This document shows, in pieces, positions 2,598 through 63,363 of a stretch of DNA of 64,000 nt. The stretch spans positions 254,634,001-254,698,000 of the forward strand of contig OZ360219.1 of the NCBI GenBank assembly GCA_977017645.1, written 5' to 3'. This DNA comes from Torpedo marmorata. Taxonomy: Eukaryota. The position numbers and the translations under genes were made by a program. The notes below the pieces were generated by a model. It saw only the letters and a list, made by a program, of their open reading frames with translations, was not told the origin of the DNA and made no database searches. Numbering within the stretch: the stretch's first letter is position 1; every line of letters starts with the position of its first letter.

Positions 2598-5500
2598 TGC
2601 TCAGTGGTGGAAAAGCTTTTGAAATGATCTGGCACAGGATTAATAGTCACTCAAAGAAATGGATAATTAAGAAGGATAACGACCATAAATTTTTTAAAGA
2701 CAAATTGCTTAACCTGCACAATAGAATTTTTTGAAGGAAGTTTACTGAGTCGATGAGGGTAATGCAGTCAATTCATGGTCTTCTAGAACTCTTTTTAATA
2801 AGGTGCCACTTCACAGTCTTATAGACATATGGCACAAAAGGGGATCGTGAAAGCATGGATATAAGGTTGACTAAGTAACAGACAAGAGAATGTCATAGAG
2901 TTATATAGTGCAGAACAGGCACTTTGGACCAACTCGTCCATGCTGACCAAGTTGGCATTCTGGGCTAGTCGCATTTGCTTTCATTGATTCCAGATCCTTT
3001 TAAGCCCTTCCTATTCATATTTCTTTCCAAATGGCTTTTGAACTATGTAATTGTACACACTTCTATAGCTTTCTCTGGAAGCCCATTTCAGATACGAACC
3101 ACCCTTTAAGTGAAAAGGTTTCCCTTCAGGTCTTTCATAAATCTTTTTCCTCTTAATTATGCCTCTCATTATAGAATCATCTATCCTAGGAAAAAGACTA
3201 AGCATTACTTTTATCTATTCCCATTATGATTTTATAAACCTCTATAAGGTCACCACTTAGCCTTACACTCCGGAGAATAAAGCCCCAGTCGATCCAACCT
3301 CTTCCTATAACTCAAGTTCTCTAATGCCAGCAACATCCTGGTGAATCTCCTTTGCACCCATTCCAACTTATTGATGTTCTTCCTACAGAATATTTTGGTA
3401 ACCAGAACAGTATACAGTACTCCAAGTGTGGCATCACAAACACCCTTGTGCAGCTGCATCATAAGGCAAAAGGTTTTATACTCAATTCCCTTCCCAATGA
3501 ACGCAAGTATGCCAGATGCCTTCTTCATGATTTTGGCCACCTCAGTTGCCACTTTCATGGAACTATGCACCTGTACCCTGGATTTCTCTGTTTTACAGCA
3601 GTCTCCAGGGTCCTACCATTCACTGTACAAGTCCTACCCTGGTTTGACTTAACAAAGTGCAACACCTCACGCTTGTTAGAGTTAAATTCCATTAGCCACT
3701 CTTTGGCCCACCTTCTCAATTCATCTAGATCCTGTTGTAAACTTGGATATCCTTCCACACTGTTCCTAATTCTGGTGTTATCTGCACATTTGATAGTTAT
3801 ATTAATGACATTGTCATCAAAATCATTAATACATATAACAAACAACAGTGGACCCAGTACCAAGCCCTGCAGCATGACCCTGGATACAGGTCTTGAATTA
3901 GAAGAGTACCCCTCCACTATTACCCTCTGAATCCTTCTACTGAGCCAGTTTTAACTACAATGGGCCAGCTCACCTTGGATCCCAAGTGATTTAACCTTGC
4001 AGACTAACGTTGCGTGTGGGACCTTGTCCAGGGCCTTGCTAAAGTCTATATATATAATAACCCAGATTAGGTAGAGGAGATGGCATCCAGGACAGCGGTA
4101 TGCTCCAACTGCAGGATGTGGAAAATCTGGGGCAGAACAAGTCTCCCTGATAACTACACCTGCAAGAAGTTCATCCAGCTGCAGATCCTTACAGACAGTG
4201 ATCAGGAACTGGAGCTGGAGCTCGACGAACTGCACATTATTCAGAAGGCAGAGGGGATGATAGAAGCTACAAGGAGAAAGTTACAGCCAAGAGGCAAGAG
4301 GTAGGTAACTGGGTGACTGTTAGGAGAGGGAAGCGGAATAGGCAGCCAGCACAGAGCACCCCTGTGGCCGTTCCCCTCAACAATAAGTATACTGCTTTGG
4401 ATACTGTTGAGGGGGAATAATCAACCAGGGAAAAATCGTAGTAATCAGGTGTCTGGCACAGAGTCTGGCCCTTCAGTTCAGAAGGGAAGGGGAAGAATGG
4501 GAGAGCTATGATAGTTAAGGGAATAGATACTCTGAACGAGATTGAGACTCCCGAATGGTATGTTGCCTCCCAGGTTCCAGGGTCAGGGATGTCTCAGATC
4601 GAGTTCACAGCATTCTCAAGAGGGAGCATAAGCAGCCAGATGACATGGTTGACATTGGTACTGGTGACATAATCAGAAAACGGGATGAGGTCCTGAAGAG
4701 GGAATATAGGGAGTTAGAAAGGAAGTTAAAAAGCAGGACCACAAGAGTGGTAATCTCGGGATTGCTGCCTGTGCCATGCACCAGCAAGGGCAGGAATAGG
4801 AAGTTATGGCAGATGAATGTGTGGTTGAAGAGTTGTGCATGGGATAGGGGTTCAGATTCGTGGATCATCTGGGGAAGATATGACCGATACAAAAAAAGGA
4901 CGGGTTGCACCTGAACGGGAGGGGCACTAATATCTGGTGGGTAGGTTTGCTTGAGCTGTTGGGGAGGGTTTAAACTAGTTTGACAGGGAGATGGGAACCA
5001 GAATGAGAGGGCAGTGAATAGCGCAGAAGATACACAAGTCGATGCACTGTGTAGTGAGATTGTGAGAAAGGATAGGCAGTCATTAGGGCAAAATTGCAAG
5101 TGTAAGATTAAGGATTTAACTTGGTGTACTTTGGAAACAAAATTGAAAAGAGTGATGAATATAGCACTGAAGGTCTTGTATTTAAATGCCCACAGTATAA
5201 GATATAAATTTGATGATCTAGTAGTGCAGCTGGAAGTTGGGAGGTATATTGTGGCCATCACTGAGTCGTGGCTGAAGAAAGACCACAGTTTGGAACTAAA
5301 TATCCGTGGATACACAGTGTAAATAGGACAGGAAGGTAGGCAGAGGGTGTGGGGTGGTTCTGCTGGTTAAAAATAGAATTAAATCTTTGGAGAGAAGAAA
5401 CATTGGATCAGAAGATATAGAATTACTCTGATTAGAATTAAGAAACCGTAAGAGTAAAAATACCCCGATGGGAGTTGTAAACAGGCCCCCAAACAATAGC

Positions 5501-6959: not shown

Positions 6960-7638
6960 CAGGTGCCTAACCTTTTATCCGAAAACCTTGGGACTGGACA
7001 CTTTTTGGAATTCGGATTTTTTCGGATTATAGAATTATAGAGGCCGACGTCTCTGCTGCTGCCGGGAGGCCGACGTCCCCGCTGCTGCCGACCTGGGAGG
7101 CCGACGCCACTGGCCCCGTTGTGATTTGGAACGCTGACCTATCTCCTGACCTGCTGAGAGGCCGACGCCGTCTGTGATCCTGACCTGCCTGGAGGCCCAC
7201 GTTGGCTGTGCTCCTGACCTGCCGGGACGCTGATGCTGCATGAGCTCCAGACCTGCCGGGAGGCCGACGTCGGCCCTGCTCCTGCGTTGTGATTTGGAAT
7301 GCATGTGCAGATTTCCATCGCTTTCTCTCCCTCTTCAGTCTCTCTCCCTCCCCAGCGACGGCAATCTGCGCATGCATTCCAAATCGGAGGCGCTGGATAG
7401 AGGGGGGGGGGGGGTTGCAGTGGCGGCCGTACCTATATGTCATCTCCGCTTCTGCCGGTAGGCCGATGTCCCCGATGTTCCACTAACTACCGACGCGGAC
7501 TGATACAGGATTTTCAAGCGTGAGTTAAGTGTAGGTCGCGTCGGGTCATGTTTGGTGAGCACATGACATCCATGAAAAAAAGTTTGGTTTTCGAAGGTTT
7601 CCGGTTTTCGGAATTCCGGATTAAAGGTTAGGCACCTG
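6960..7638. mobile_element. Tc1/mariner (pogo/Tigger-like) MITE with internal GC-rich tandem motifs
   Basis: TIR CAGGTGCCTAACCTTT(T/A)ATCCG at both ends, TA duplication (6958-6959, 7639-7640), repeated GAGGCCGACG motifs at 7040-7275. Confidence 0.9.
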
Positions 7639-10629: not shown

Positions 10630-11852
10630 CAGGGGCACGCAACCTTTTTCCATGTGTGGGCCGGATGGTGTGTCAGTGGTTGAACGGTGGGCCACACTGA
10701 TGCTACCATAAATGAAATAAATACTGAAACACAATCATTATGTAATTGAAGTTTTCGATTGTCTCTGCTTGAAGTACGTAATGTACAATGTATGAACATA
10801 ACTGATGATAATTTATAAAAAAAAATCCACAGAAAAAGTTCAAGCAACGAGATCAACCGTATTCCTTCCAAAAACTACGATGATGCATTTCAGGTCAGGG
10901 ATAAATAAGAAATAGATAGATAGAACATTACAGCACAGTACAGGCCCTTCGGTCCTCGATGTTGTGCTGACCTATATATTCCTACCAAAAATAAAGTTCT
11001 AAACCCTTCCTACCTCGTAACCTTCTATTTTTCTTTCATCCATGTGCTTGTCGAAGAGTCCCTTAAATGCCTCTAATGTTTCAGCCTCCACCACCATCCC
11101 TGGTAAGGCATTCCAGGCACCCACAATTCTCTGTGTAAAAAACTTACCCCTGATGTCTCCCCTAAACTTCCCTCCCTTCACTTTGTACAGATGTCCTATC
11201 AGTGTAACAGCAGGCTGAAGACAACATTGGAGATCATGAGGGGTGGGAATGAACCCGGAGCGGGGTGCAGCAGTTACCCCCCAACCCTCCCCCCGCCCAC
11301 GGCCTCCGCCACAAGGTCCCCCGTTCCCTGGGGCAGAATCATCCAGACTGTCTCCCCTCCGCCCCCCGGCCGCGTCGGTAGCCAAACCAGCTGGGTACCT
11401 GAGGGTGGATGAATGCCCGCTCCTGTCCATGCACCATGGCCGCAGCCCGCCATCTCCATGCGGCCGGCAGATGCGGGACGACGGGTTACACGTCGGGGAG
11501 CGGGCGCCGTCTGCTAAACGGCTCGTGCCAAGCAATCGTCGCCACTCCCCACGTTAAAGGGCTCGTGCCAACCGACCCCGCCGTCCGCTAAACGGCTCAC
11601 GCCAAGCAATTGTCGCCACTCCCCACGTTAAAGGGCTCGCACCAACTGACCCCGCCGTCCACTAAACGGCTCGCACTGGGGAGCGGACGCCGCGCGTGAG
11701 GCGGCTCACGCTGGGAGAGGACGCCACACGTGAGGCGGCTCACACTGGGGAGTGGATGCCGCGCGTGAGGTGGCTCGCTCTGGGGTTGCGGGCCGGATAA
11801 ATTTGGATCGCGGGACGGATTTGGCCCGCGGGCTGTAGGTTGCCCACCCCTG
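10630..11852. mobile_element. Non-autonomous hAT (Charlie-like) element inserted in the CR1 endonuclease GDF motif
   Basis: TIRs CAGGGGCACGCAACCT / AGGTTGCCCACCCCTG; 8-bp TSD ATTTAAAA at 10622-10629 and 11853-11860; internal ~75-bp and ~35-bp tandem repeats at 11510-11790. Confidence 0.9.
10912..11196 (-). mobile_element. Short CR1 3' end inside the hAT element
   Basis: GHLYKVKGGKFRGDIRGKFFTQRIVGAWNALP; tail (TCTA)n; close match to 43346-43645. Confidence 0.85.
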
Positions 11853-23395: not shown

Positions 23396-24387
23396 ATTTG
23401 TTATCTCTTGAAGAGTTTTTAAATGCTGACTAGCCAATCATTCAAACATATTTCACCTCAAAATATTTCAGTATCCTGGTAAATGTCATTCATATGTCAT
23501 GTCACTGTGAGAAAGATAGTTCAAGATTGTTCTATCATTCCACAATTCCAAACATCTACCTTTAAAATTTCCTGTCAACAATCCTCAATTTTCCTTTGAT
23601 ATAATCCCATAAGAAAAATCTGGAATGCAGAATAAACTGGAGAAACATTCAAGTGTTAAAGGGCCTGCTCTATGCTTCATTACTCCATGAATGGAGGAAG
23701 AATTTGCCTTCTGTGTCTGTGGGATTTTGAATGACCTTCAGGCTTCACCACCAAGGCTGATCTACAAAGCAAGCATTCCAGAAGCATCAACCAGATCTTG
23801 TCTGCTGGATCTAAGGTCCTGCTCTGGACCACTGATGAATGCTTAACACTGGATGAAATAGCCTTTTCTAACTGTTTTTAATGTCTTTGATGATCTGAAA
23901 CATTCAAAAACTTATTAAATATATTTAAATAGTTAAAAATATATTGAGGATAAATTTAATTTAATCGGTATCTGGTGTAAATTAATTAAAGCAACAAGAT
24001 TAATAGAAGAAAATTTGACTTACTTTCACACTTTCTCCATGTAGGTCAGTGATCTCACAGATGGCATATAGTTAGAGAGCCAGATACAAAATTGCCTCAA
24101 CTCACGATGGCCCAGAGATGCCCTTGGAAATAGTGGTGAGGCCAAATGCATTGACATGTGACCTTTAGGGCAATGGGTACTCTATCAGGCTATATGTGGT
24201 TGCAGAAGTATAAATGCATTGATTTGCAAAGAGTACCTTGCCCGATCAACTAAATTACCATCGAAAGGAGAGAATGCTCTGAATCATTAAGTTATTTCAG
24301 ATGCAGGTTTGTTTTTGACCCACTTATTTTTAGTTTACCTCAGTAAAGGCCCAATTACCTGCAAATAATGAATTTCGATGTGGATGT

Positions 24388-25370
24388 GGCCATTCCTCAG
24401 CACTGCCACAGTGATGGCCCAGGATCCTTCAGCACTGCCCCAGTGTTGGCCCCAGATCCCTCAAAACTACCCCAGTGTTGGCTCCAGATCCCTCAACTCT
24501 GCCCCAGTGTTGGTTCAGGCTGCCTCTCAGCACTACCCCAGTGTTGTTTCAGGCTGTCTCTCAGCACCGCCCCAGTGTTGGCTCAGGTCATCCCTCAGCA
24601 CTGCCCCAGTGTTGTTTCAGGCCATCCCTCAGTATTGCCCCAGCTACAAACTCTAGGTCTCTATACCCCCCTCCCCCACCTCTGCAACTGGATCCTTGAC
24701 TTTCTCATCGGAAGACCACAGTCAGTACGAATTGGAAACAACGTCTCCTCCTCACTGATTATCAACACAGGCGCACCCCAAGGATGCGTGCTTAGCCCAC
24801 TGCTCTATTTGTTATACACCCATGACTGTGTGGCCAGGCACAATTCCAATGCCATCTACAAGTTTGCCGATGACACCACAATTGTCGGCAGAATCACAAA
24901 CGGCAATGAGGAAGTGTACAGGAGGGAGATAGATCAGATCGTTGAATGGTGTAACGACAACAACCTTGCGCTCAACATCAGCAAATCCAAGGAGATGATT
25001 GTGGACTTCAGGAGGAAGTCAGGGGAACAACACCCAGTCCTCATCGAGGGCTCAGTAGTGGAGAGGGTCAAGAACTTCAAATTCCTGGGTATCAACATCT
25101 CCGAGGATCTGTCCTGGAGCCTCCACGTTGATGCAATTACAAAGAAGGCTCGCCAGAGGCTATACATTGTGAGGTGTCTGACGAGATTCGGTATGTCACC
25201 GAAGACTCTCGTAAACTTCTACAGGTGTACTGTGTTGGTTCAGGCCATCCCTCAGTACCGCCCCAGTGTTGACTCAGACCATCCCTCAGTACTGCCCCAG
25301 TGAAGGCTCAGGCCATCCCTCAAGTACTGATCAATTGTTGGCCCTAGTCTTCCCTCAGTGCTGCCTCAAT
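24388..25370. repeat. ~34-bp minisatellite (CCCTCAGCACTGCCCCAGTGTTGGCTCAGGCCAT), about 12 units, split by a Rex1 fragment
   Basis: CTCAG recurs at 24526, 24560, 24594, 24628 and again after 25233. Confidence 0.9.
24644..25232 (+). mobile_element. Internal Rex1 RT fragment with no tail
   Basis: Stop-free [45 protein letters not shown]. Confidence 0.9.
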
Positions 25371-31099: not shown

Positions 31100-34000
31100 T
31101 GAAAAGCACGAACATCTGCAGATACCGTTGTTGAAGTAAAAACACAATGCTGGAGAAACTCAGCAGGTCAAACAGTGTACTTTACAGTGTAAAAAACACA
31201 AATGCTGGAGAAACTCAGCAGGTCAAACATTGTCTTTTATGTAGCAAAGGTAGAAATACATAACAGACATTTCAGGCTTGAGCCCTTCATCAAAGTATGA
31301 GAAAATGCCGGCAGGCGTCCGAACAAAAGAGTGAGGGGGGGAAGGGGGGATGGCAAAGGCAGGAGATGATAGGTGGAGAAAGGAGGGAGGGGACAGCAGC
31401 AAAGAGGGGAAGGAAGGATGGCTGGATGGGTGGAAAAAAACAGGGACAGGTGAGGGGGGAGGGGAAGGAAAAGACAAGCAGGTTTAGTGGAAAGCAGAAA
31501 AGTCAATGTTAATGCCAACTGGCTGGAGAGTGCCCAGACGGAAAATGAGATGTTGTTCCTCCAATTTGCAGGCAGTCTGGGTGGGATAGTACATAAGGCC
31601 ATGGAGAGACATGTGAGTGTGGGAGTGTGACTCGGAATTGAAATGGTTGGCTACTGGGAGGTCGCTGTTGTTGCGGACGGAGAGGAGGTGCACAGCGAAG
31701 CGATCTCCCAATCTATGACCGGTCTCTCTGATGTAGATAATGCCACAAAGGGAGCACCAGATGCAGTAAATAAGTTCTCTGGATGTACAAGTGAAGTGTG
31801 CTTCATTTGAAAGGCCTGTTTGGAGCCCCGGACCGTGGTGAGGGGGGAGGTGTGGGCGCAGGTGTTGCACCTCCTGCGGGCACAGGGGAAGGTGCCGGGG
31901 GTGCGATGGGTGGGGAGGGATGAGTGCACGAGGGAATCGCGGAGGGAACGGTCCCTGCGGAAGGACGAGAGGGGAGGAGAAGGAAAAATGTGTCTGGTGG
32001 TGGGATCCTGTAGTAAGTGCTGGAAATTCCTGTGAATAATCTGTTGGATGCGGAGGCTGGTGGGGTGGAAGGTGAGGATGAGGGGGATTGTTGCGTCTGG
32101 GGGCAGAGGGGGCCAGGGCAGATGAGTGGGAAATGGAGGAGATGCGGGTGAGGGCTGAGTTGATGGTGAAAGGGAAGCCACGTTTGTGGAAGAAGGCAGA
32201 CATTTCAGAAGATCTAGACTGGAAGAACTCATCTTGGGAACAGATGTGGTGGAGACAGAGAAATTGAGAGAAGGGAATGGAATCCTTGCAGGGGACAGGG
32301 TGTGAGGAAGTGTAGTCCAGATAGTTGTGGGAGTTGGAGGGTTTGTAGTAAATGTCGGTGGAAAGCTTGTCTCCCGAGATGGAGACAGAGAGATCCAGGA
32401 AGGGGAGAGTGTTATTGGAGATGGACCAGGTGAGTTTGAGATCGTGGTGGAAGTTGGATGCGAAGTGGATGAAGTTGACAAGCTCATCGCGGTTGCATGA
32501 GGCAGCTCCGATGTAGTCATTGATATACCGGAGGAAGAGATGAGGGGTCTTGCCTGTGTAGGCTTGCAGCATGGATTGCTCCACAAAGCCCATAAACAGC
32601 CAGGCGTAGCTGGGACCCATGCGGGTACCCATGGCTACTCCTTTGATTTGGAGGAAGTGGGATGAGTTAAAGGAGAAGTTATTGAGAGTGAGGACAAGTT
32701 CTGCCAGGCGGAGGAGGGTGGTGGTAGAGGGTGACTGGTTGAGTCTTTGGTCCAGGAAGAAGCGAAGTGCTTTCAGACCTTCTGTGTGGGGGGTAAAGGT
32801 ATAAAGGGATTGGACATCCATAGTGAAGATGATGCGGTCTGGTTCAGGGAATCTGAAGTCATTGAGGAGATGGAGGGCATGTGAGGTGTCGCGGATGTAG
32901 GTGGGAGGGATTGGACCGGGGAGAAAAGATGGAGTCAAGGTAAGATGAAACTAGTTTGGTGGGGCAGGAGCAGGCAGAAACAATGGGTCTGCCCTGATGG
33001 TTGGGTTTGTGTATCTTGGGTAGAAGGTAGAAATGGGCAGTGCGGGGGTGAGAGAGAATGAGGTTGGTGGCCGTGGAGGGGAGGTGACCGAAGGTGATGA
33101 GGTTGAAGATCGTGTTGGAGACAGTGGCTTGATGTGTAGTGGTGGGGTCCTGTGGGAGGGGTCGGTAGGAGGAGGTGTCTGAGAGCTGTCGACTGGCCTC
33201 GGCAAGGTAGAGGTCAGTGCGCCTGACCACAACTGCACCGCACTTGTCTGCGGGTTTGATGGTCAGGTTGGGATTGTTGCGGAGAGAGTGGAGGGCAGAG
33301 CGTTCTGAGGAGGTGAGGTTGGAATACGAGAGGAGGGTGGTGAAGTTGAGACAGTTGAAGTCTCGGCGGCAGTTGGAAATAAAAAGGTCCAGAACGGGCA
33401 GCTGGCCAGGACGAGGTGTCCAGGAAGAGGAAGAGGGCTTGAAGCGGGAGAAAGGGTGTTGGGTGGGGGGTGGAGAGTCACAGTCATGGAAGTGAGCCCG
33501 GAGGCAGAGGCGACGGAAGGAGAGTTCGGCATCGTGGCGTGCGTGGAACTCGTTGAGGTGTTGGCGGAGGGGGACGAAGGTGAGGCCTCTACTGAGGACC
33601 GAGCGCTCCATCTCAGAGAGGGGAAGGTCAGAGGGGATAGTAAAAACCAACCAGGGGTTAGAGTGGGGATCGGTGTTGTAGAGGGTGTTGGGGGGAGGGG
33701 GAGGGTTGGGGAGGTCCGAGGGTGGAGATGTATGGTGGGGGAGGTTGGAGGGAGGAGGAGGGGGGTTGGGGGTGTTGGCGTGGGGAGGGGGGTTGGGGAG
33801 GTCAGAGTGGGGGAAGGTGGGGGGTGGGGCAGGTTAGAGGGGGGAGGTGGAGGGTGGGGGAGGTCGGAAGGGGGAGGTGGGGGTGGGGGAGGTAGGAGGG
33901 TGGTAGGGGGGTAGCCAGAGAGAGGGGGGGGGATGGTCTGAGGGTTGGGGAGAAGAGGGGGGCAGAGAGGGGGAGATGGGGGTGGAGTAGGGAGAGGTGT

Positions 34001-34260
34001 AGGAGGATAGGGAAGGAGTAGTGAGGGGGATAAGTAAGTGGGATCCAGTAGCGAGATCAGGACTCCAGTGGCAGTCAGCGTGGGAGGCTCCAGCAGGTAA
34101 CAGTCTGTGTCGGGAGCCGGCAGTGGAGGCATCGGGAGTTCTGGTGAGTAGGGACTCAGGGCCCGAGCTGGAGTGGGCGGCCGTGGCGTCGGGTGTACCG
34201 TCGTGTCGGCGCCCGGGGGGGCGGGTAGGAGTGGGCGGCCATTGCGTTGGGAGCTCCGTA
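31100..34260 (-). mobile_element. Near-complete Penelope-like element (Neptune-type): Pro-rich N-terminus, RT, Cys linker, GIY-YIG endonuclease; frameshifted pseudogene
   Basis: LSRGLTFVP, IKPADK, FYLLPKIHKP..GRPIVS, TMDVQSLYT, GVAMGTRMGPSYA, RYIND, LPFLDL, CARRRCNTC linker, LIYCIWCSLCGIIYIRETG..RFAVH, EQHLIFRLGTLQPVGIN. Tandemly duplicated 3' end at 31137-31235. Confidence 0.93.
31259..31299 (-). ncRNA. Minimal type I hammerhead ribozyme motif, decayed
   Basis: Minus strand: CATACT TTGATGA A GGGC TCAA GCCT GAAA TG TC TGTTATG; differs from the other two copies mainly at CpG sites. Confidence 0.6.
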
Positions 34261-37084
34261 GTTCAATATCATGAGATGCGGTTATTTTAACAATTAATTA
34301 AACATTGATAAACAAAAAAAAAACATTTTTTTTAACTTTGCGATCTTTAAACCCATCTATGTGTCCCTTTTTATTTTCAGGAGGGAGGCCATGGTTTGTC
34401 TGATGTAGGACTGATGTAGATTCTGCTAATCATAGAATTAAGAAGTTTCAGTTGGGCCGAATGAAGGATTTTTTTCTTACTGTTCAAATCGCTAATCTGT
34501 TCTGCATTAATAACACATTTGCAATTTTTGCATATAAAGCATGGAACAGATTCAAGGTTCTATCATAACCAATGGGACAGTTTGATTAAATATTCAAATA
34601 TTGTTTGTTTAGTATTTTGTTGGAGACTATGAAGAGAAATTCGTCAATACAAAAGCCCCATGTTCATTCCAAACAGGGTAAAATAATTAATTAAATGCCA
34701 GCTCTGATGCTCTCGATTAACACTCATCTCATCCAAACAGAAATGTGGTATTGACAAAGAATTCTGATCTCCCAAATTATGTTACACTGTACAAAATCAT
34801 TTCATACTTGAAATACAAGTTTCTCTCTTCATCAGAAACCATATCATTATTTTCTGGTATTTAATATTCTAATCAATATTTGTGATTCACTGCCAGGTTT
34901 TATCAAATCATTTTCCACTGAACATACTTCTTCAATACTTTAAATTTCAATTAGAAACTGCTCCACAATTGTCCAGCCTTTAATGCTTTGATCAATGCAG
35001 CTTATCTATTGTTAGATTTCATCAGGAAACAACAGCATGCTTAGATATCTAAGGTTATACTTTCATTTACGTACTAATGATGGTAAAAAGATATACATGA
35101 GTATCAAGTTTTTAATTTTCTTCCAATCATTAATAAACAGAGGGAAATATTGTCTCCAATACTTGCACACATATCTGGACTGTTGTTTGTGTTTTGTTTG
35201 TTGCCCTCTTTAGAGAGATTTATCTGAAAGATAACTTAATAGACTGAAGAAAATTTCACCAAAGTAGCATTTTCAAAGAACAGAGCACATTTCTTACCAA
35301 CTGACTACACGTTTATGATGATTTGATACCCTAGACAGATAATTTTCTAAGGTTCTTTCTTCTTTTATCTTTAATTACAATGAAATGATGAGTCACAGAC
35401 AACTCTACATTTTTTAAGTATTTCCCGATTATCAATATAGAATATGCATACACAATAAGAGATCATTTTGTATCATAATTTGCCATGTAAAATTGTATAT
35501 ACTGCAAGGGTCAGTGATTTCAAACTAACATGGCTTCATGATGGTCGTCATTTATCTATTGTCAATTGAAAGAAATATTTTATCAGTACCGCATTCATCA
35601 GAACACAATGAAGCATGAAGTCAAAGATTACTCCATAACCAAGAAGAAAGAACTTGCTTTCACGTTTTGTTTGTTGGGAGAAATGGGTCTCACCTTTGGC
35701 TTCAGAATATCCTCATGGATTTTAGTCTACCTTTCGCCCAAGTATCATTCTTTAGCCTGGTCCTGGTGTAACACCTAACATCCAGTGTCATTGAGCTTCG
35801 GATCAATAGGGAAAGAGTGAAGGATGGACGCAAACCTTATACTCAAAACTAATGAGTATTAATTTCATTAAAAAAAGGTATTGAACATGCTGTAATATAT
35901 CAGCAACCATGGCAGTACAAAAATTCATACCAACAACCCAATTTGGTTTATACTGAGGGATATAGTCAGCATCTGAACATTGAACCATGCATGAAGGACA
36001 GAGAGAGCTGCAAGAATGTAGATTTGAGTCACCATTTGACAATCTCAAAGCAAGATATGGTTTTCCATTCAATTTACTATTGTGTCTGTACACATTGATT
36101 GCAGAGGCAGTTTCATTTGGTTTTGGCAAGTTTCCTTTCAATAAATTGAAAATACCATGCAGAGTTAAATGCAATTTATTAATTTTATTAAAAATTGCAG
36201 TTTCTGATAATATTATTAAATACTTCTGATAAAATGAAAATGGTATCTAAATAGGTTCTATTCAAATATATTTCAACTGGTTCCATGCTGTGATATATAA
36301 CATTGAGCAATTTGAAGAGGCTGCTTGTCATTAAATTAATTTTTTTTTTCTTTCTTGGCCAATCTGCGTGTTTTAGGTTTGCATGGAGATAAGTAAAAAA
36401 TTGTGAATACATAATTCAGAATTTCCAAAGGTCAAAAAAATTTGCAATATCCAGATCATTACACAATAAATATGGGGGCAGAAAATGCTGTGTGCTCTGA
36501 TTGATGCCTCAATATGTCAGTGGATGTTTCCAACAGAGGCCGAAGTCTTGTTGGGAAACACCCATGCTTCTGACTGGGGTAAAGCCAGAATTAACCTTTC
36601 TGGTCACAGACATTTCAACTCCTGTACTAAATCTTTTCAGTATTTAACTTCTTTGGATAAAGATTTGTTTAAGTTCATGACATTGTAATACTTGAGAATA
36701 CTTGTTAATAGTGAGAATCTCTCTTCAATTTATTTTGAAAATAAATATATTCAATCCCACCACAGTACTGTGAGAATTTTCCATTTCTTTTGAAGTTTGG
36801 AAATAAAAAGAAACTGGTATCATTAAACATGAATGTAGGTGCCATGTAACCATACTCACTTTACTTATACACTGAGGCTGGTTGGAGAAGGGACCCTGTC
36901 AAACTTATCATATCAGTTTAACCCCTGAGCCGACTGAATTGCCCTGAAGAGAGTTTGTTTGCACCCCAGAGTGTGACCATGAGTGACACCCTTGCTGATG
37001 TCACTGTTATTCTCTTTGCAGTTTCTCCATGTCTCACTATAGCTGTACCACTGTTATAAAGTCATGGACATCCCTGGATTCACA

Positions 37085-49690: not shown

Positions 49691-51056
49691 AGTCTGTGAG
49701 ACTACGAACGTTATGGAAGAGCAGGAGATAGCGGGATCAGAGGAGGTGGCGGGAACAGAGGAACATCATATGGCTTTTGTATTTTATCAAGTCTTCTCTT
49801 CTTGCACAAACAATCCACTAGTTCAAAGGACACACAGTTGATCACTTCCTCAGTTTCTATTCAAGTTACCATGTGAGTGGCTTTCAGAAGGTGTGAGGTA
49901 ATGACTCCTATTCCAACTTCAGCTGATCCAAAGAGAAGATCTTCTCCACCCCTGTTCCACCTCACACAAGTCTGCACATACTGTATAATGATGCCTCTCC
50001 TCTGCAGATTACAAATATTCATTGGGTTCAAAACTCCTCAAAAGATTCCACTTCTTCTAAGATGAAACAGACAACCTGCCAAGAGTACAGGCATCTAATG
50101 CTTACATAATCGTGACAGGCTTGACCAGTAATACTGTAACTGTTACATACCAAGTGAATAAGTAAAGAATGATGATGTATAATTACCTTTATAAAACTGA
50201 TAGGCATGCTGATTATTTCACTCGCTGATGTTGTGAGACAGATTCTGTTAAGTAATGAATTATAATTGTCATCTGGAATATTCATTAAAATGACAGACTT
50301 TAACTCTTCATGGAGCTGGAGGTTACCATCCTGCTGGTGATAGATATTAAGGCTGCTCATTATCGATATTACTTGGCCAGTGTTCAAAATCCCACTTTCC
50401 ACAGGGTGAAACATGGTTGGTTAAGTTTATTGCCTGTGCAGGCCTTACAATCGTAATCAAGGGTGAGTCAGCAGAAATTACTGCCCACTGTTGATTTTGC
50501 TATTTTGAAATAATGATGTAGTGGTAAGCAACACTGAAATTTCCTTCCTTTCAGCAGCAAGAAAGGAAGTTTAAAACCATTCTGTCTTGCAAAGTCTCTG
50601 GATTTGTGTTCATGCTTCAATAAAACTGTGTGCCGCTCTTATCCAAAGCTGTTATCAAAGTAGGTGTAAATATGAATAAATCCTGCAATTAATATTTATG
50701 AATCAGCATAATATTTATGAATCAGCAGAGCTCATTTGTCACATCAAGTCTTATCTCTCAATCTCCCACCCTAACCCCAGAACAAAGGACTGACATAGTC
50801 CTCACATTTTTCATCGTCTCTGGTCTTCTTCAAGAAAAATCTGGTGTTACTTTATTTTCCCCACATTTGCTTCTACTCTTAAACATTGATAGTGTTCCAC
50901 CCTCAACTTCTAACTTGGTGACTCAGTTCAACAAACACAGAGGAGCTGAAACATATTTACAACACTGCAGATTGATGTTGACGAGTGTTCGGTTCATAAA
51001 GTTTGATGGAGGAAAATACTTTGAAGATAGTATTAATGTTCATTGAATGTAGCATT

Positions 51057-51670
51057 TCACACTACCCACTGTGGATCATGGATAGTATTTTCCAGTGGTT
51101 CACACTGCCCACTGTGGATCATGGATAGTATTTTCCAGTGGTTCACACTGCCCACTGTGGATCAGGGTAGACCCTCCCCAGTTGTTCAGACTGCCCACTG
51201 TGGGTCAGTGTGGACCCTCTCCAGTGGTTCACACTGCCCACTGCAAATCAGGGTTGACCATCTCCAGTGGTTCACACTGCCCACTGTGGATCATGGGTAG
51301 TACTTTCCAGTGGTTCACACTGCCCACTGTGGGTCAGGGAATGTATTTACCAGTGGTTCACACTGCCCACTGTGGATCAGGGTGGACCCTCTCCCCAGTG
51401 GTTCACTGACTACTGTGGATCAGGGTTGACTGTCCCTCCAGTATTTCACACTGCCCACTGCAGATCAGATTTCACCCTCTCCAGTGGTTCACACTGCCCA
51501 CTGTGGATCAAGGTAGACCCTCCCCAGTTGTTCACACTGCCCACTGTGGATCAGTGTGGACCCTCTCCAGTGGTTCACACTGCCCACTGCAAATCAGGGT
51601 TGACCATCTCCAGTGGTTAACACTGCCCACTGTGGATCAGTGTGGACCCTCCCCAGTGTTTCACACTACA
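51057..51670. repeat. 43-bp minisatellite, about 14 units
   Basis: Core TCCAGTGGTTCACACTGCCCACTGTGGATC at 51091, 51134, 51177, 51220, 51263 and onward, each followed by a variable ~13-nt segment. Confidence 0.95.
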
Positions 51671-51789
51671 TCCAGTCAATGTGAATTTCAAATAATCTCT
51701 CTTGGCTTAATGAAGCCTACCCATTCTGAATGGCCATGTTGCATAACATCGCTTCAGCGACTCTCACCTCCAGACTACCTCTGACTGCA

Positions 51790-53239: not shown

Positions 53240-53925
53240 TTATAGAATATATATGTATTTGATATATTTACAGTATGTACAGTATATATGTGATTATTGT
53301 GCACTATGTTTGCTTCGTCCGCACCAGTGACAGAGACCTCCCAGTAGCCAACCATTTCAGTTCTGTGTCACACTCCCATACTCATATGTCTGTCCATGCC
53401 TTATGTACTATCCCACCAAGACCACCGTAAATTGAAGGAACACCACCTGATTTTCCATCTGGGCACTCTCCAGCCAGATGGCATTAACATAGACCTTCCT
53501 GGTTTCTGCTTACCTGCTCTACTCTCCTCCCTCTTCCCTCCCCCCTTCCCTTCCCCCTTCCAGTTCTCCTCCCCTCCTCTTCCCTCTCTATTCATCCAGC
53601 CATCCCTCCTCCCCTTGCTTGCTGCTGTCCTCTCCCTCCCTTCTCCACCTATTACCTCCTGCCTTTGCGACCACGCCTCCCTCCCTACTCTTTTATTCAG
53701 ACGCCTGCCAAAATCTTTCCATACCTTGATGAAGGGCTCAAGCCCGAAACGTCAGTTATGTATTTTTACCTTTGCTATATAAAGGACACTATTTGACCTG
53801 CTGAGTTTCTCCAGCATTGTTTTTTTACTTATGCGCTATAGTATGTACGCACCGTGGTCTGGAGAAACTGTTTCGCCTGGTAGCATATGTACAGTCAGAT
53901 GATAATAAACTTGAACTTGAACTTA
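53240..53925 (+). mobile_element. Rex1 3'UTR interrupted by a Penelope 3' fragment (~53312-53830)
   Basis: Rex1 tail GATAATAAACTTGAACTTGAACTT; insert encodes LPVANHF..KEHHLIFHLGTLQPDGINID followed by the Penelope 3'UTR. Confidence 0.8.
53720..53760 (+). ncRNA. Minimal type I hammerhead ribozyme motif in Penelope 3' repeat
   Basis: CATACC TTGATGA A GGGC TCAA GCCC GAAA CG TC AGTTATG; predicted cleavage after 53753. Confidence 0.7.
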
Positions 53926-59364: not shown

Positions 59365-60093
59365 GAGTCTCTCTTCCCACCATGACCATGACGGACATCT
59401 ACAACACACGATGCAGGAGGAAGGCTAATAACATTGTGAAGGACTTCTCACATCCCTTTTGTAAACCATGGCCTCATGTACTATCCCACCCAGACTACCC
59501 GCAAATTGGAGGAACAACATCTCATATTCCGTCTCGGCACTCTCCAGCCAGATGGCATTAACATTGACTTTTCTGCTTTCCACTAAACCTGCTTGTTGTT
59601 CCCTTCCCCTCCCCCCTCACCTGTCCTTCCTGTTTTTCTCCAGCTACCTAGCCATCCCTCCTCCCCCTCTTTGCTGCTGTCCCCTCCCTACTTTCTCCAC
59701 CTATCATCTCCTGCCTTTGCCATCCCCCTTCCCCCCTCACTCCTTTGTTCGGACGCCTGCCGGCATTTTCTCATACTTTGATGAAGGGCTCAAGCCCGAA
59801 ACGTCAGTTATGTATTTCTACCTTTGCTACATAAAAGACACTGTTTGACCTGCTGAGTTCTCCAGCATTTGTGTTTTTTACTTTAACCACGGTGTCTACA
59901 GATTTTCGTGTTTTACTTTTCCCCCAAGCCATCAGGCTCCTCAATTTTTAGATATATATGTGTATTAGCATGTTATAGTTTTTTAATTGTATTATGATAT
60001 TTATGTACATCTGCCCATGGTCCTGGAGAAACGCTATCTCGTCTTACTGTGTATATGGTAATGAACGACAAATAAAGGTGACTTGACTTGACT
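59365..60093 (+). mobile_element. Short Rex1 3' copy (same family as 1415-2435) containing a Penelope 3' fragment (~59467-59916)
   Basis: 59365-59466 and 59917-60093 align to ~2084-2179 and ~2250-2435; the insert aligns to the reverse complement of ~31100-31605. Confidence 0.88.
59772..59812 (+). ncRNA. Minimal type I hammerhead ribozyme motif in Penelope 3' repeat (best-paired copy)
   Basis: Helix I CATACT/AGT(T)ATG, core TTGATGA (59778-59784), extra A, helix II GGGC-TCAA-GCCC, GAAA, palindromic ACGT, predicted cleavage after GTC at 59805. Confidence 0.72.
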
Positions 60094-60769
60094 TTGGTTC
60101 ACATTCCCCTCCCTAGATAGTTTAAACTCTCCCCAATAGCTCCAGCAACCCTGCTCACAAGGATATTGGTCCCTCTGCAGTTCAGGTGCAACCCGTGCCT
60201 TTTGTACAGGTCATTCCTCCCCCAGAAGTGATACCAACGATCTACTAATCTGACTCCCTGCATAGACACCAATTCCTCAGCCACAAATCTTTCTATTCTT
60301 GCCTTTACTGGTGCATGGCACAGGAAGCAATCCAGAGATTACTACCCTTAAGGTCCTGCATTTAAGCTTGCTTCATAAATCTCCATATGCTAACCATGCC
60401 GCCCATTTTTAATTATTTTAATTTGCATAATATGATGAAAAAATTGATAGTTAAGTCACTGGCTAGTCAGCTCAAAGTTGTGACACCTGGCCAGACAGGC
60501 CATTGATATTTGACCTCTGATCACTGATTTAAAATGATCTTAGTTCAGAGGAAACGTAAGTTTTAGGCTTGAGGAACAATCAGCTATAGTTCTCAGCAAT
60601 GATGTTGCTGCTCAGTTACACATGCAGTTAGTTATTTATGCATGAACTGAATGAAGTTTCATACATATTGGTGGGAGCCACATATTGACCAAAATATATA
60701 AGTAATCCAGGTGGGTGTTTAAATTAAAAGCTGTTAGTTTCATGTTCACCATTATTAATATGAACTTTT

Positions 60770-60890: not shown

Positions 60891-61992
60891 TATGATGGTG
60901 TTGATTTCACATGGGTGGATGATGGTCAGACGCATAAACAGACCTAATTCCGATGCCCCTATGGACAAAAGCTCTATTTTAATTTTTGTTTAGGACAGAT
61001 ATGACAAGGGTTATTTCAGCAGAGTGCAGAAGGGTTTCAGCTGTTTATGGCATGAGTGAACACCTTGAGAAGAGAACTAAATGTAAGAGCAAGTTCATTG
61101 AATGTAGCCTGAGGTTAGGATTCAGTATTAAGCCAGTATACAGGGGGTTTTGCATTGTACAGCATTTGAGGTATATTTGAGTATTACATGTTAATTCTAC
61201 AAAGAAGTAAAGGTATGTTATATTTTCCAGCACTAGAATGCTTTATGATCAGCACAAAACACTTAACCCACTAATGCAATAATAAAAATGCAATTCATAT
61301 TTTAATGACTAGAAGGGTTAAATAGTGTGAAGGAGTCAATAGGCTGCAGACAGCATCACCAAATATGCTATTTTGAAATGATCCATCATCTACAGGCAGC
61401 AAAACGAGAGTGCTGCTTGAGGAGATTGTTTAGTTGAATTTCGATTTACAACTCTTCATTTTTTTTCAGTTTTTCTGATCGAGCACATCTAAAAATAATG
61501 CCTTCAGGAGACTGTGCCACATATAAGCAGCAGATCTGTGCAGGCCAAACATGTGCATCTGTAGATGTTGCAAACTCTGGAGGAGCTTCCCTCATAATCT
61601 AAGGCTATAGTTCATAAAATACACCATAATTTTTTGCTGTTTGAGTAAATACAGTTTATTGTGGAAGAATATACACCTACACAGGTACTCTATGGATCTG
61701 TGTTCAGATCTCTTTGGACTAAGCATAAATTATTTTGATGATGAAATAAAAGGAATAATATCTAATGTTGCCAAAATTAGCAGGCAAGGGAAACTGTCAA
61801 AAGGACATGGATACATTTTGGAATGCATTTCAATAGAGATAGAAAGAAGAGTTTGAGAGTGGAAATAGTGATTTTTTTAAAAAGAGAAGAATAAAGAAGG
61901 ATCACCTCTCCCAGCAGATAAAACTAAGAAGACTGTTTAAATAACTCAAAAAAATCAAGAATACCACAAAAAGAGCTATTACTACTTTAAGA

Positions 61993-63363
61993 ATGGCTGG
62001 CAGAAAAACGAAAGAACAAAAAGCTAAAAAAACCATGGTTCAAACGACTTTATTACATGAAGAGAAAAGGCCTACCTTGGAGATGGAGCCTGGGACTGTC
62101 CTGCAGTTGAAGCCTGGTAAGCGACCTGGCAAACGCTCGTCTGAATCGGGAACGCCGACGCTACCTCCGCAGGGAGCTGCGGAAGATGGCGCCGGCGCCC
62201 GACTCAAAACTACAAAAAGATTGGAAGAACAAGCGCGCATGCGCAGAATTGCCGATTTGCAAATGCAATTATATGAGGCCAGTGTGACGTCAACGGAGGC
62301 TCCCCAGACTATACTACAGGCTGGGAAGCCAGCAACATCGTCGGAATCTGAAGGAGAGAAAGAAGATAGCCAGCTGGGAGAAGAAGATATTGAAGATTTT
62401 GATACATATGAAGGTGATATGCAGAGAAAATTAAGTACAATGCAAGAGAATATTTTACAGGCTATAGCAAAATTGGAAAGGAAAATGGATGCTAAGCTTA
62501 ATATGACTATAAGTAAAATACAAGATGAATTTATAGAAATAAAAAAGAATATGGGAAGACTGGAGAGTGCTGTAAATAAAGTGGATGAGAGAGTTAAAAG
62601 AATGGAAGAAGAAACTGAAAATAATAAGCATGAAGTTGAATATTGTAGAGATAGAGTGGATAAGATGGAAGATACCTTTACTGGATGGCAAAAGCAAAGA
62701 GATGAAATGATGTTGAAAATAGAACAGATGGAAAATCAAAGTCGCAGAAATAATGTGAAAATATTGGGAATACCTGAAAATTTTGAATCTATAGATACGG
62801 TTAAGTTTTTTCAAGACTGGCTGAAGCAGACTTTTGGATTTGACCAACCAATAGAGCTTGAACGTGCTCATAGGATTGGAAGGAGAGATCAGATAGATCG
62901 GAGACCACGTCCAATTTTGATGAAGTGTTTGAGATATCAAGACAGAGAAAGAATTATAAGATCAGCAATTCAATATGCACGTGATAATGGTGCTCCGATG
63001 CAAATTCAAGGGAATAGAATTCTCTTCTATCCTGATTTGAGCCCTATGTTGGTCAAACAACGTAAAGAGTTTAATCCTGCTAAGGCAAAGTTATGGGAGA
63101 AAGGCTATAAATTTTCGTTTAAATATCCGGCGACTTTGAGAATTCAAAATGGTGATGGTTCTATATTATTTATGGATCCTCGACAAGCTGAGTTACATGC
63201 AAATAATCTTCCGAATCTGAGAAGAGTCTATACTGTGAGTAACATTCAACAAGCGCAAGAAAGTCAAGTAAGAAGAGAGAATGAACTGCCGGGTTTGATA
63301 ACCGAAGAAGCTGCCCTGGTTCAGATTGAAGAAGAAAGTGAAAATTTAAGAGGAGTTAACTAA
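61993..63363 (+). CDS. L1 ORF1 protein (456 aa; coiled coil, RRM, CTD)
   Basis: ENQSRRNNVKILGIPE, IELERAHRIG, RPRPILMKCLRYQDRE, FYPDLS, KYPATLRI. Confidence 0.93.
   Translation: MAGRKTKEQKAKKTMVQTTLLHEEKRPTLEMEPGTVLQLKPGKRPGKRSSESGTPTLPPQGAAEDGAGARLKTTKRLEEQARMRRIADLQMQLYEASVTSTEAPQTILQAGKPATSSESEGEKEDSQLGEEDIEDFDTYEGDMQRKLSTMQENILQAIAKLERKMDAKLNMTISKIQDEFIEIKKNMGRLESAVNKVDERVKRMEEETENNKHEVEYCRDRVDKMEDTFTGWQKQRDEMMLKIEQMENQSRRNNVKILGIPENFESIDTVKFFQDWLKQTFGFDQPIELERAHRIGRRDQIDRRPRPILMKCLRYQDRERIIRSAIQYARDNGAPMQIQGNRILFYPDLSPMLVKQRKEFNPAKAKLWEKGYKFSFKYPATLRIQNGDGSILFMDPRQAELHANNLPNLRRVYTVSNIQQAQESQVRRENELPGLITEEAALVQIEEESENLRGVN

Follow-up and report, generated by a model that had tools for sequence, protein, structure and literature searches.

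The locus analyzed here raises the question of what becomes of a hammerhead ribozyme in a retrotransposon when the core residue that pairs with G8 is exchanged. The window, a 64,000-nt stretch of Torpedo marmorata DNA, contained three copies of a Penelope-like element (PLE) with U at position 3 of the hammerhead core opposite G8, and a sequence-only reading of it had proposed that the ribozyme of this family was attenuated, re-registered or dispensable.

The three 41-nt motifs were found on the strands and at the sites where that reading had placed them (Table 1). In all of them, UUGAUGA and an extra A were followed by a helix II of 4 bp with a loop of 4 nt, then by GAA, a helix III remnant of four letters, and C17; in both plus-strand copies, the remnant between GAA and C17 was ACGU. 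The changes in the minus-strand copy were a G·U closing pair in helix II, AUGU in place of ACGU, and U at position 1.1. Both plus-strand copies contained A at position 1.1, compared with G in the majority of the family (inspected loci and consensuses A-D and F); this A was a CpG-type change, which was also fixed in one young subfamily. The Rfam scan of the window gave no hammerhead family among its three matches at E<=5, and the motif was therefore identified from its anatomy and by comparing it with the PLE alignment in the literature. The exact 26-nt core had 69,272 matches in the 6.2-Gb genome and none for the reversed control, which implied that the motif did not occur by chance. A further hammerhead-like string at window position 34834 on the minus strand, in which the helices were absent, was taken as a chance match. 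The anatomy agreed with the proposed minimal hammerhead of the dimer type, in which a dimer would presumably be required for cleavage. Among the features that had been called non-canonical, the U3 variant deserved the term, but the extra nucleotide that separates position 9 from 10.1 and the palindromic helix III did not, both being defining traits of metazoan PLE hammerheads in general in the accessible text of PMC4209133.

Table 1. Positions of the hammerhead motifs, their host copies and other features in the window
Feature	Position	Strand	Remarks
Minimal type I hammerhead motif, young subfamily A	59772..59812	+	Basis: anatomy
Helix I 5' strand of the 59772..59812 motif	59772-59777	+	
U3 of the 59772..59812 motif	59778	+	Core runs to A9 at 59784
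Extra A of the 59772..59812 motif	59785	+	Precedes helix II
Helix II of the 59772..59812 motif	59786-59797	+	
GAA of the 59772..59812 motif	59798-59800	+	
Palindrome ACGU of the 59772..59812 motif	59801-59804	+	
C17 of the 59772..59812 motif	59805	+	Predicted cut 3' of C17
Helix I 3' strand of the 59772..59812 motif	59806-59812	+	
Hammerhead motif, older subfamily B	53720..53760	+	C at 2.1; U3 53726; C17 53753
Hammerhead motif, subfamily A	31259..31299	-	U3 31293; C17 31266; three decay-type changes
5'-truncated Penelope-like copy: ORF end, pyrimidine-rich 3' UTR, hammerhead, long tail	59466..59914	+	
Older 5'-truncated Penelope-like copy, ends at short tail	53313..53830	+	About 80% identity to young copies
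Long 5'-truncated Neptune-type copy: frameshifted RT and GIY-YIG ORF, 3' UTR, hammerhead, short tail	31189..34258	-	
Second tail fragment of a related copy	31102..31184	-	Directly behind the long copy
472-codon open frame with long coiled coil	61945-63363	+	Pfam: coiled-coil matches only, under cut-off
Minisatellites, 43, 32-34 and 34-35 nt periods	51005-51726; 24392-24665; 7143-7312; 11667-11784		
LINE-type RT fragments	1061-1681; 24347-25303	+	RVT_1 matches
SGNH/OSK-like fragment	4546-4914	+	Typical of CR1/L2 ORF1
178-nt repeat, 96% identical	2252-2429; 59917-60094		Second copy starts directly behind the 59.9-kb Penelope tail

That the carriers were PLEs was borne out by an ORF for reverse transcriptase (RT) and a GIY-YIG endonuclease, as well as by protein relatives throughout the genome. 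In the protein search, the RT stretch of the long minus-strand copy was 93-95% identical at the amino acid level to 146 other genome copies (147 scored including the window's own copy, among 110,315 first-look candidates). The broken frames of the window copies had no match in Pfam. An intact relative of 1,156 amino acids showed RVT_1 at 644-826 (E 3.4e-6) and GIY-YIG at 1060-1094 (E 9.6e-4), both of which were weak matches under the Pfam curated cut-off. A single ORF with RT followed by a C-terminal GIY-YIG domain is the layout of endonuclease-positive PLEs. Directly N-terminal to the GIY-YIG domain, the same protein contained a C-x4-C-x2-C linker, and a CX2-5CxxC linker between RT and endonuclease is the mark of the Neptune clade in the accessible part of PMC8557442. 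On this sequence criterion, the element is assigned to the Neptune type.

Twenty genome regions around long open frames were examined for ORFs and motifs. The motif was located about 190 nt 3' of the stop codon or ORF remnant and about 150 nt 5' of the next ATG, in the pseudo-LTR of tandem copies, and two tail ends, one short and one long, were located about 75-110 nt downstream of the motif. Tandem or partial-tandem layouts, as expected for PLE pseudo-LTRs, were observed in L233/L234, L240 and L242, and the genome contains tandem arrays whose period is 3.8-4.2 kb. The array L233/L234 (G000:C52:2200000-2219800) contained two complete and identical 3,843-nt units with 1,157-codon open frames and three motifs. 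It belonged to a very young subfamily in which positions 7 and 1.1 had become A and position 11.1 had become U. All three changes are compatible with the fold, and the same form of the motif was present in L227, L230 and L231. In the window, the young plus-strand copy was 96% identical to an intact monomer over 410 nt, and the long minus-strand copy was without an upstream terminal repeat. Among the other features of the window (Table 1), the 472-codon frame presumably resembles the LINE-1 ORF1 protein, judged by motif.

The pairing of U3 with G8 proved to be a family-level variant, as had been proposed. Among the 69,272 exact-core copies, 68,055 contained U3 and 460 contained C3, and with U3 and G8 together in 98% of them, the canonical Watson-Crick pair between positions 3 and 8 was absent from nearly all of these copies. 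The remaining canonical core (U4, G5, A6, N7, G8, A9, G12, A13, A14, A15.1-U16.1 and H17) was present. A looser generic pattern gave 99,400 matches with U3 and 2,650 with C3, that is, 97% U3. In the 20 long-ORF loci, U3 was present in each of the 27 motifs that followed an ORF end, and two further ORF ends were without a motif; position 3, tabulated in the youngest copies including those with intact ORFs, was thus U and not C. In the older subfamilies, U3 was found in 95 of the 100 matches listed out of 9,454. Each of the 20 exact-core C3 loci inspected represented a point change, a deletion or a junction. Genome-wide pattern searches found no amplified C3 revertants of the young family, nor was an amplified U3-A8 rescue found among the 451 non-G8 copies in total, with A in 74 of the 100 listed; A8 and C3 were present at the level of single mutations only. 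U3 with G8 is fixed across young and old lineages of the element. In contigs from other organisms, no T>C change at position 3 was seen among the rows listed, while T>C at 2.1 was common, which hints that U3 is shared more widely than one genome.

U3 likely arose by the insertion of one U, by which the ancestral C3 would have been shifted into helix I. Both forms occurred, with an identical 3' strand, in one old family: of the 100 matches listed out of 230, 75 were C3 and 25 were plus-U. The added U leaves two C residues 5' of the insertion, and these then pair with the two G residues 3' of the cut. In 19 of 20 loci of this mixed family (L345-L364), position 17 was U, not C. A tree was built from 65 ORF ends, with the motif excluded from the alignment, 13 mis-joined or C3-selected rows left out and young copies thinned. 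In this unrooted tree, a split with 90/88 support set one plus-U intermediate and the C3 families apart from the remaining U3 families. The C3 side consisted mostly of long end branches, and a single U3 clade imposed as a constraint was merely not rejected (p-AU 0.27). With the tree unrooted, the direction from C3 to U3 was taken from the generality of C3 in PLE hammerheads: in the alignment of Fig. S3 as available in PMC4209133, C3-G8 occurs in 53 of 56 rows, U3-A8 in two and U3-G8 in one (Saccoglossus).

The proposal of a re-registered ribozyme thus agrees with the history, in which helix I was shifted by one base, but not with a hidden C3, since both letters that precede UGA were U in the youngest family. 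The old C3 position was U in 74 of 77 copies of subfamily A, which is the youngest and largest, and therefore cannot still serve as C3 there. These counts also bear on the possibility that U3 is only apparent, with the ancestral C still pairing with G8 and the inserted U bulged as in the saltern hammerheads. The C directly 5' of two U residues in subfamilies B-F, the origin of the change as an insertion, and the slow natural hammerheads with insertions beside C3 described in the available text of PMC3088659 would suit a bulged U, but besides the loss of that C from subfamily A, position 2.1 faced G or A at 1.1 like a helix pair (C-G 26, U·G 7 and U-A 3 in 50 rows). Moreover, forced-duplex folding, which was informative for D, E, F and the plus-U old family and excluded A and B where the constraint was not honoured, gave the better duplex with both C residues paired in all four. 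The outer four pairs of helix I are identical in both registers, so covariation there does not decide the register. We consider a bulged U highly improbable.

Whether the motif is kept was judged from 560 distinct copies in the fetched loci, of which 292 contained both flanks and 185 of these had not been picked by the core; 11 copies without a core match and 13 unassigned copies were dropped from the 185 before counting. The copies were sorted into subfamilies A-F by the sequence that surrounds the core, following hand-made rules, and G+ had too few copies for a consensus. Divergence of the copies from their consensus was 2% in A and 9-17% in B-F. Among the six U3 subfamily consensuses, none of the 14 core positions varied, compared with 32 of 54 ungapped flank columns (Fisher p 3.5e-5, in a test that treats kin subfamilies and columns as independent and with a consensus E of four copies), and the flanks of A and F were 50% identical. 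Position 7, which hammerheads leave free, was U, A or G across the subfamilies, while G5, A6, G8, G12, A13, A14 or the H17 site was lost in no U3 consensus. The extra nucleotide 9a, the pair G10.1-C11.1 and the palindromic 15.2-16.2 pair were invariant in the consensuses of A-F except for one CpG-type letter in E, and helix II and most of loop II were likewise invariant. In the youngest subfamily G10.1-C11.1 was changed to G·U, indicating that the core region is not absolutely frozen. The same G·U is found in several published PLE rows in the supplement available for PMC4209133.

Helix I behaved differently from helix II. In a 50-row alignment, from which 8 of the 58 candidates were omitted because they were C3-selected or visibly truncated or decayed, a choice that favours pairing, 87% of the cells of helices I and II were paired. 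Three of the six pairs of helix I in the U3 register showed two-sided changes, one bulged letter varied, and helix II showed no two-sided change. The two-sided cells of helix I amounted to 33, compared with 20.4 in shuffles (reached in 0 of 500) and at most 9 in slid controls. In the predicted minimum-energy fold of subfamily A, the core was paired with the cleavage strand and the junction was not formed.

The invariance of the core relative to its flanks, the free position 7 and the compensated helix I imply that the motif is not in decay, and at the level of fold conservation they contradict the proposal that it is dispensable. A dead relic hitch-hiking on a successful element is accordingly very remote as an explanation and largely refuted. 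Single copies do decay, as in the minus-strand copy of the window with its three changes, and a hammerhead is unneeded for insertion in vitro in the accessible text of PMC11167929, but a relic would hardly keep an invariant core between flanks that differ by up to 50%, nor would its helix I changes be compensated after U3 arose. Conservation of the fold is distinct from proof of catalysis, and binding of a protein or a DNA element would explain the invariance of helix II and loop II too.

The state of the template was examined through the 5' ends of 97 copies of subfamilies A and B, which were picked by the tail downstream of the cut and included a few local duplicates. Of these, 89 read through the cut, one ended within 2 nt of it, and seven ended further downstream. 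Ten of the 97 5' ends were located in the 9-nt 5' strand of helix I, where 0.7 were expected from the upstream background; with ends inside the core also raised (9 in 25 nt) and with the local duplicates, the fair excess at the helix I edge is nearer fourfold. Across the whole genome, the patterns for purine junctions matched 810 times at the edge of helix I, compared with 196 times at the cut; 28 of 30 edge matches inspected were flank or inverted junctions, compared with only 8 of 30 plain flank junctions at the cut. The pile-up suggests that transcription starts just upstream of the motif, about 5 nt before U3. The letters at the pile-up presumably fit the initiator consensus. A cap-derived G at this place was considered and rejected, since 9 of 21 flank-joined copies showed G and 12 showed A. 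The positions of the 5' ends indicate that the templates were likely copied uncut, in agreement with the accessible text of PMC11167929.

Several rearrangements were observed around the motif. Inverted 5' junctions occurred in 7 of 30 and 9 of 30 inspected loci, and head-to-head palindromic stubs of inverted 5' pieces were centred just 5' of the hammerhead core (L010/L011, L036, L048, L075 and L103). A recurrent internal deletion, seen in about 10 of 100 matches listed (in G000, for example C5:263541004, C11:50717490 and C11:70401710), fused the first core strand to the 3' strand of helix I via a short shared word, with loss of helix II and the cut. Short tandem arrays with a 28-76 nt period were derived from the stretch just behind the cut (L105-L107, L126-L128 and G000:C11:228764364-228764593). 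At L240:2953-3049, GT or GC right behind 1.1 and a conserved YAG about 96 nt downstream resembled a small intron spanning the tail. Such an intron, which would begin one base 3' of the cut with GT/GC at 1.2-1.3, was unsupported: no spliced joint was among the 15 joints listed in four contig sets, where 43 more fell outside the listing, and the search for a genomic copy of the spliced form gave none, its one pattern match being unrelated.

Reading through the cut in 89 of 97 copies would also be expected if the ribozyme were fully active in vivo and unit-length RNA were ligated into circles, so that the cut is hidden from the DNA record. Such circles were proposed for PLEs in the available text of PMC4209133 and would agree with the tandem arrays of 3.8-4.2 kb period. 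A circle has no 5' end, yet the ends piled up at the 5' edge of the motif and fell off upstream, which fits linear uncut transcripts and leaves the pile-up unexplained by re-ligation. In the accessible part of the saturation screen of a type III hammerhead (PMC9901934), all single and double mutants of the CUGA turn were of low activity except for the C3G/G8C swap, and the anole element gave no reads at the cut in PMC11167929 as available; both also weigh against a fully active ribozyme, which we regard as improbable.

The missing pile-up of ends at the cut, together with helix II and loop II that were nearly as invariant as the catalytic letters, would be accounted for if the motif cut at no useful rate and its fold or sequence were kept as a site for the element's protein near the RT start, or as an internal promoter. 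The 5' ends just before the core put the motif at about +6 to +33 of the transcript, in the zone of internal promoters, and the Penelope of D. virilis contains an internal promoter (PMC2377424, in the accessible text). In the available texts, hammerhead mutants inserted unimpaired in vitro (PMC11167929), and Naiad PLEs thrive without hammerheads (PMC8557442). However, the freely changing letter of the first strand was position 7, exactly the one that hammerheads leave free, none of the catalytic letters from G5 to the H17 site was lost in a U3 consensus, and a protein site or promoter has no obvious cause to mimic the pattern of a hammerhead. A motif that does not cut therefore seems rather unlikely to us, while carrying appreciable weight.

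We slightly favour, with confidence just above even, a slowed, dimeric and likely protein-assisted self-cleaver that would be kept under selection while new copies are made from uncut RNA; among the three proposals of the sequence-only reading, attenuation would be the best fit. In this proposed mechanism, two motifs would complete helix III through the ACGU palindrome, and the U3·G8 wobble would lower the rate of cleavage. Slow cutting would protect the template, because the RT start in the tail is located about 75-110 nt behind the cut and cleavage in the 3' motif would sever this start from the ORF, and slow cutting gated by a protein would suit the element. A more specific history is doubtful, though conceivable, in which a slip of helix I exchanged C3-G8 for U·G once and the tuned-down ribozyme took over the Penelope lineages of this genome (about 100,000 recognisable copies) with catalytic selection kept, acting as a rate switch by which the RNA is copied first and cut later. 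By analogy with the type III screen of PMC9901934, in the part accessible, U3·G8 may be close to dead.

One genome offers a natural series of C3 forms, a mixed intermediate family and a hugely amplified U3 family with intact copies, in which selection for slow cleavage versus selection for the fold alone can be asked about directly. After weakening of the 3-8 pair, the other core positions did not change, which speaks against a purely parasitic or decaying motif. About 97% of the motifs that match the pattern in this genome would escape descriptor searches that require CUGANGA.

Lunse, Weinberg and Breaker reportedly described about 150,000 small PLE hammerhead variants in 2017, and U3-G8 cases may well be among them; exchanges of the 3-8 pair are said to have been treated by Przybilski and Hammann in 2007. 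The class of motif and the U3-G8 letter pair are already in print; the likely origin by a register slip and the conservation of the core with seemingly uncut templates are new. In the literature as available, no printed discussion of a U3-G8 PLE lineage was found beyond the Saccoglossus row and a mention in PMC7151607 of the U3...G8 form in a halophile hammerhead variant (HHphage). The function of PLE hammerheads is called unclear in the accessible text of PMC8557442, where the idea of hammerheads as parasites of the element is raised.

The motif is closest to the minimal hammerheads of metazoan PLEs (Cervera and De la Pena 2014, PMC4209133, here and below as available), which cut weakly and only as dimers. 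Like the present motif, they are of type I, are located in the terminal repeat, and contain the extra nucleotide between 9 and 10.1, G10.1-C11.1, a palindromic 15.2-16.2 pair, no loop 3 and a short helix I. Their consensus is C3-G8 with U3-A8 as the variant in the text (U3-A8 is also described in PMC3088659), whereas U3-G8 made up 97% of the generic matches in this one vertebrate genome. The row Saccoglossus kowalevskii (1) of their Fig. S3, which is marked as PLE-associated and stands as the example of a consensus family, shares U3 and G8, the extra A, the C-G palindrome and a helix I 3' strand starting with GG, but this single row has a longer helix II and U17, unlike the motifs of the window.

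Two further systems are instructive, both in the accessible texts. The saltern hammerheads HHmeta and HHphage (PMC3088659) are also natural cores altered beside position 3, and HHmeta is slow in standard buffer; these are prokaryotic or viral monomers with two letters inserted between helix I and position 3, whereas here one letter was inserted and absorbed by the shift of helix I. The Poseidon element PAc of Anolis carolinensis (Frangieh et al. 2024, PMC11167929) shares a hammerhead upstream of an internal RT start and two tail ends, and uncut RNA appears to be the template in both elements. The anole hammerhead cuts only with its protein, uncut RNA is its main substrate, and core mutants did not reduce insertion in vitro. 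In PAc, the hammerhead has C3-G8 and overlaps the start of the ORF, whereas in the present element it ends about 150 nt before the ATG, the linker is of the Neptune type, and cleavage is predicted.
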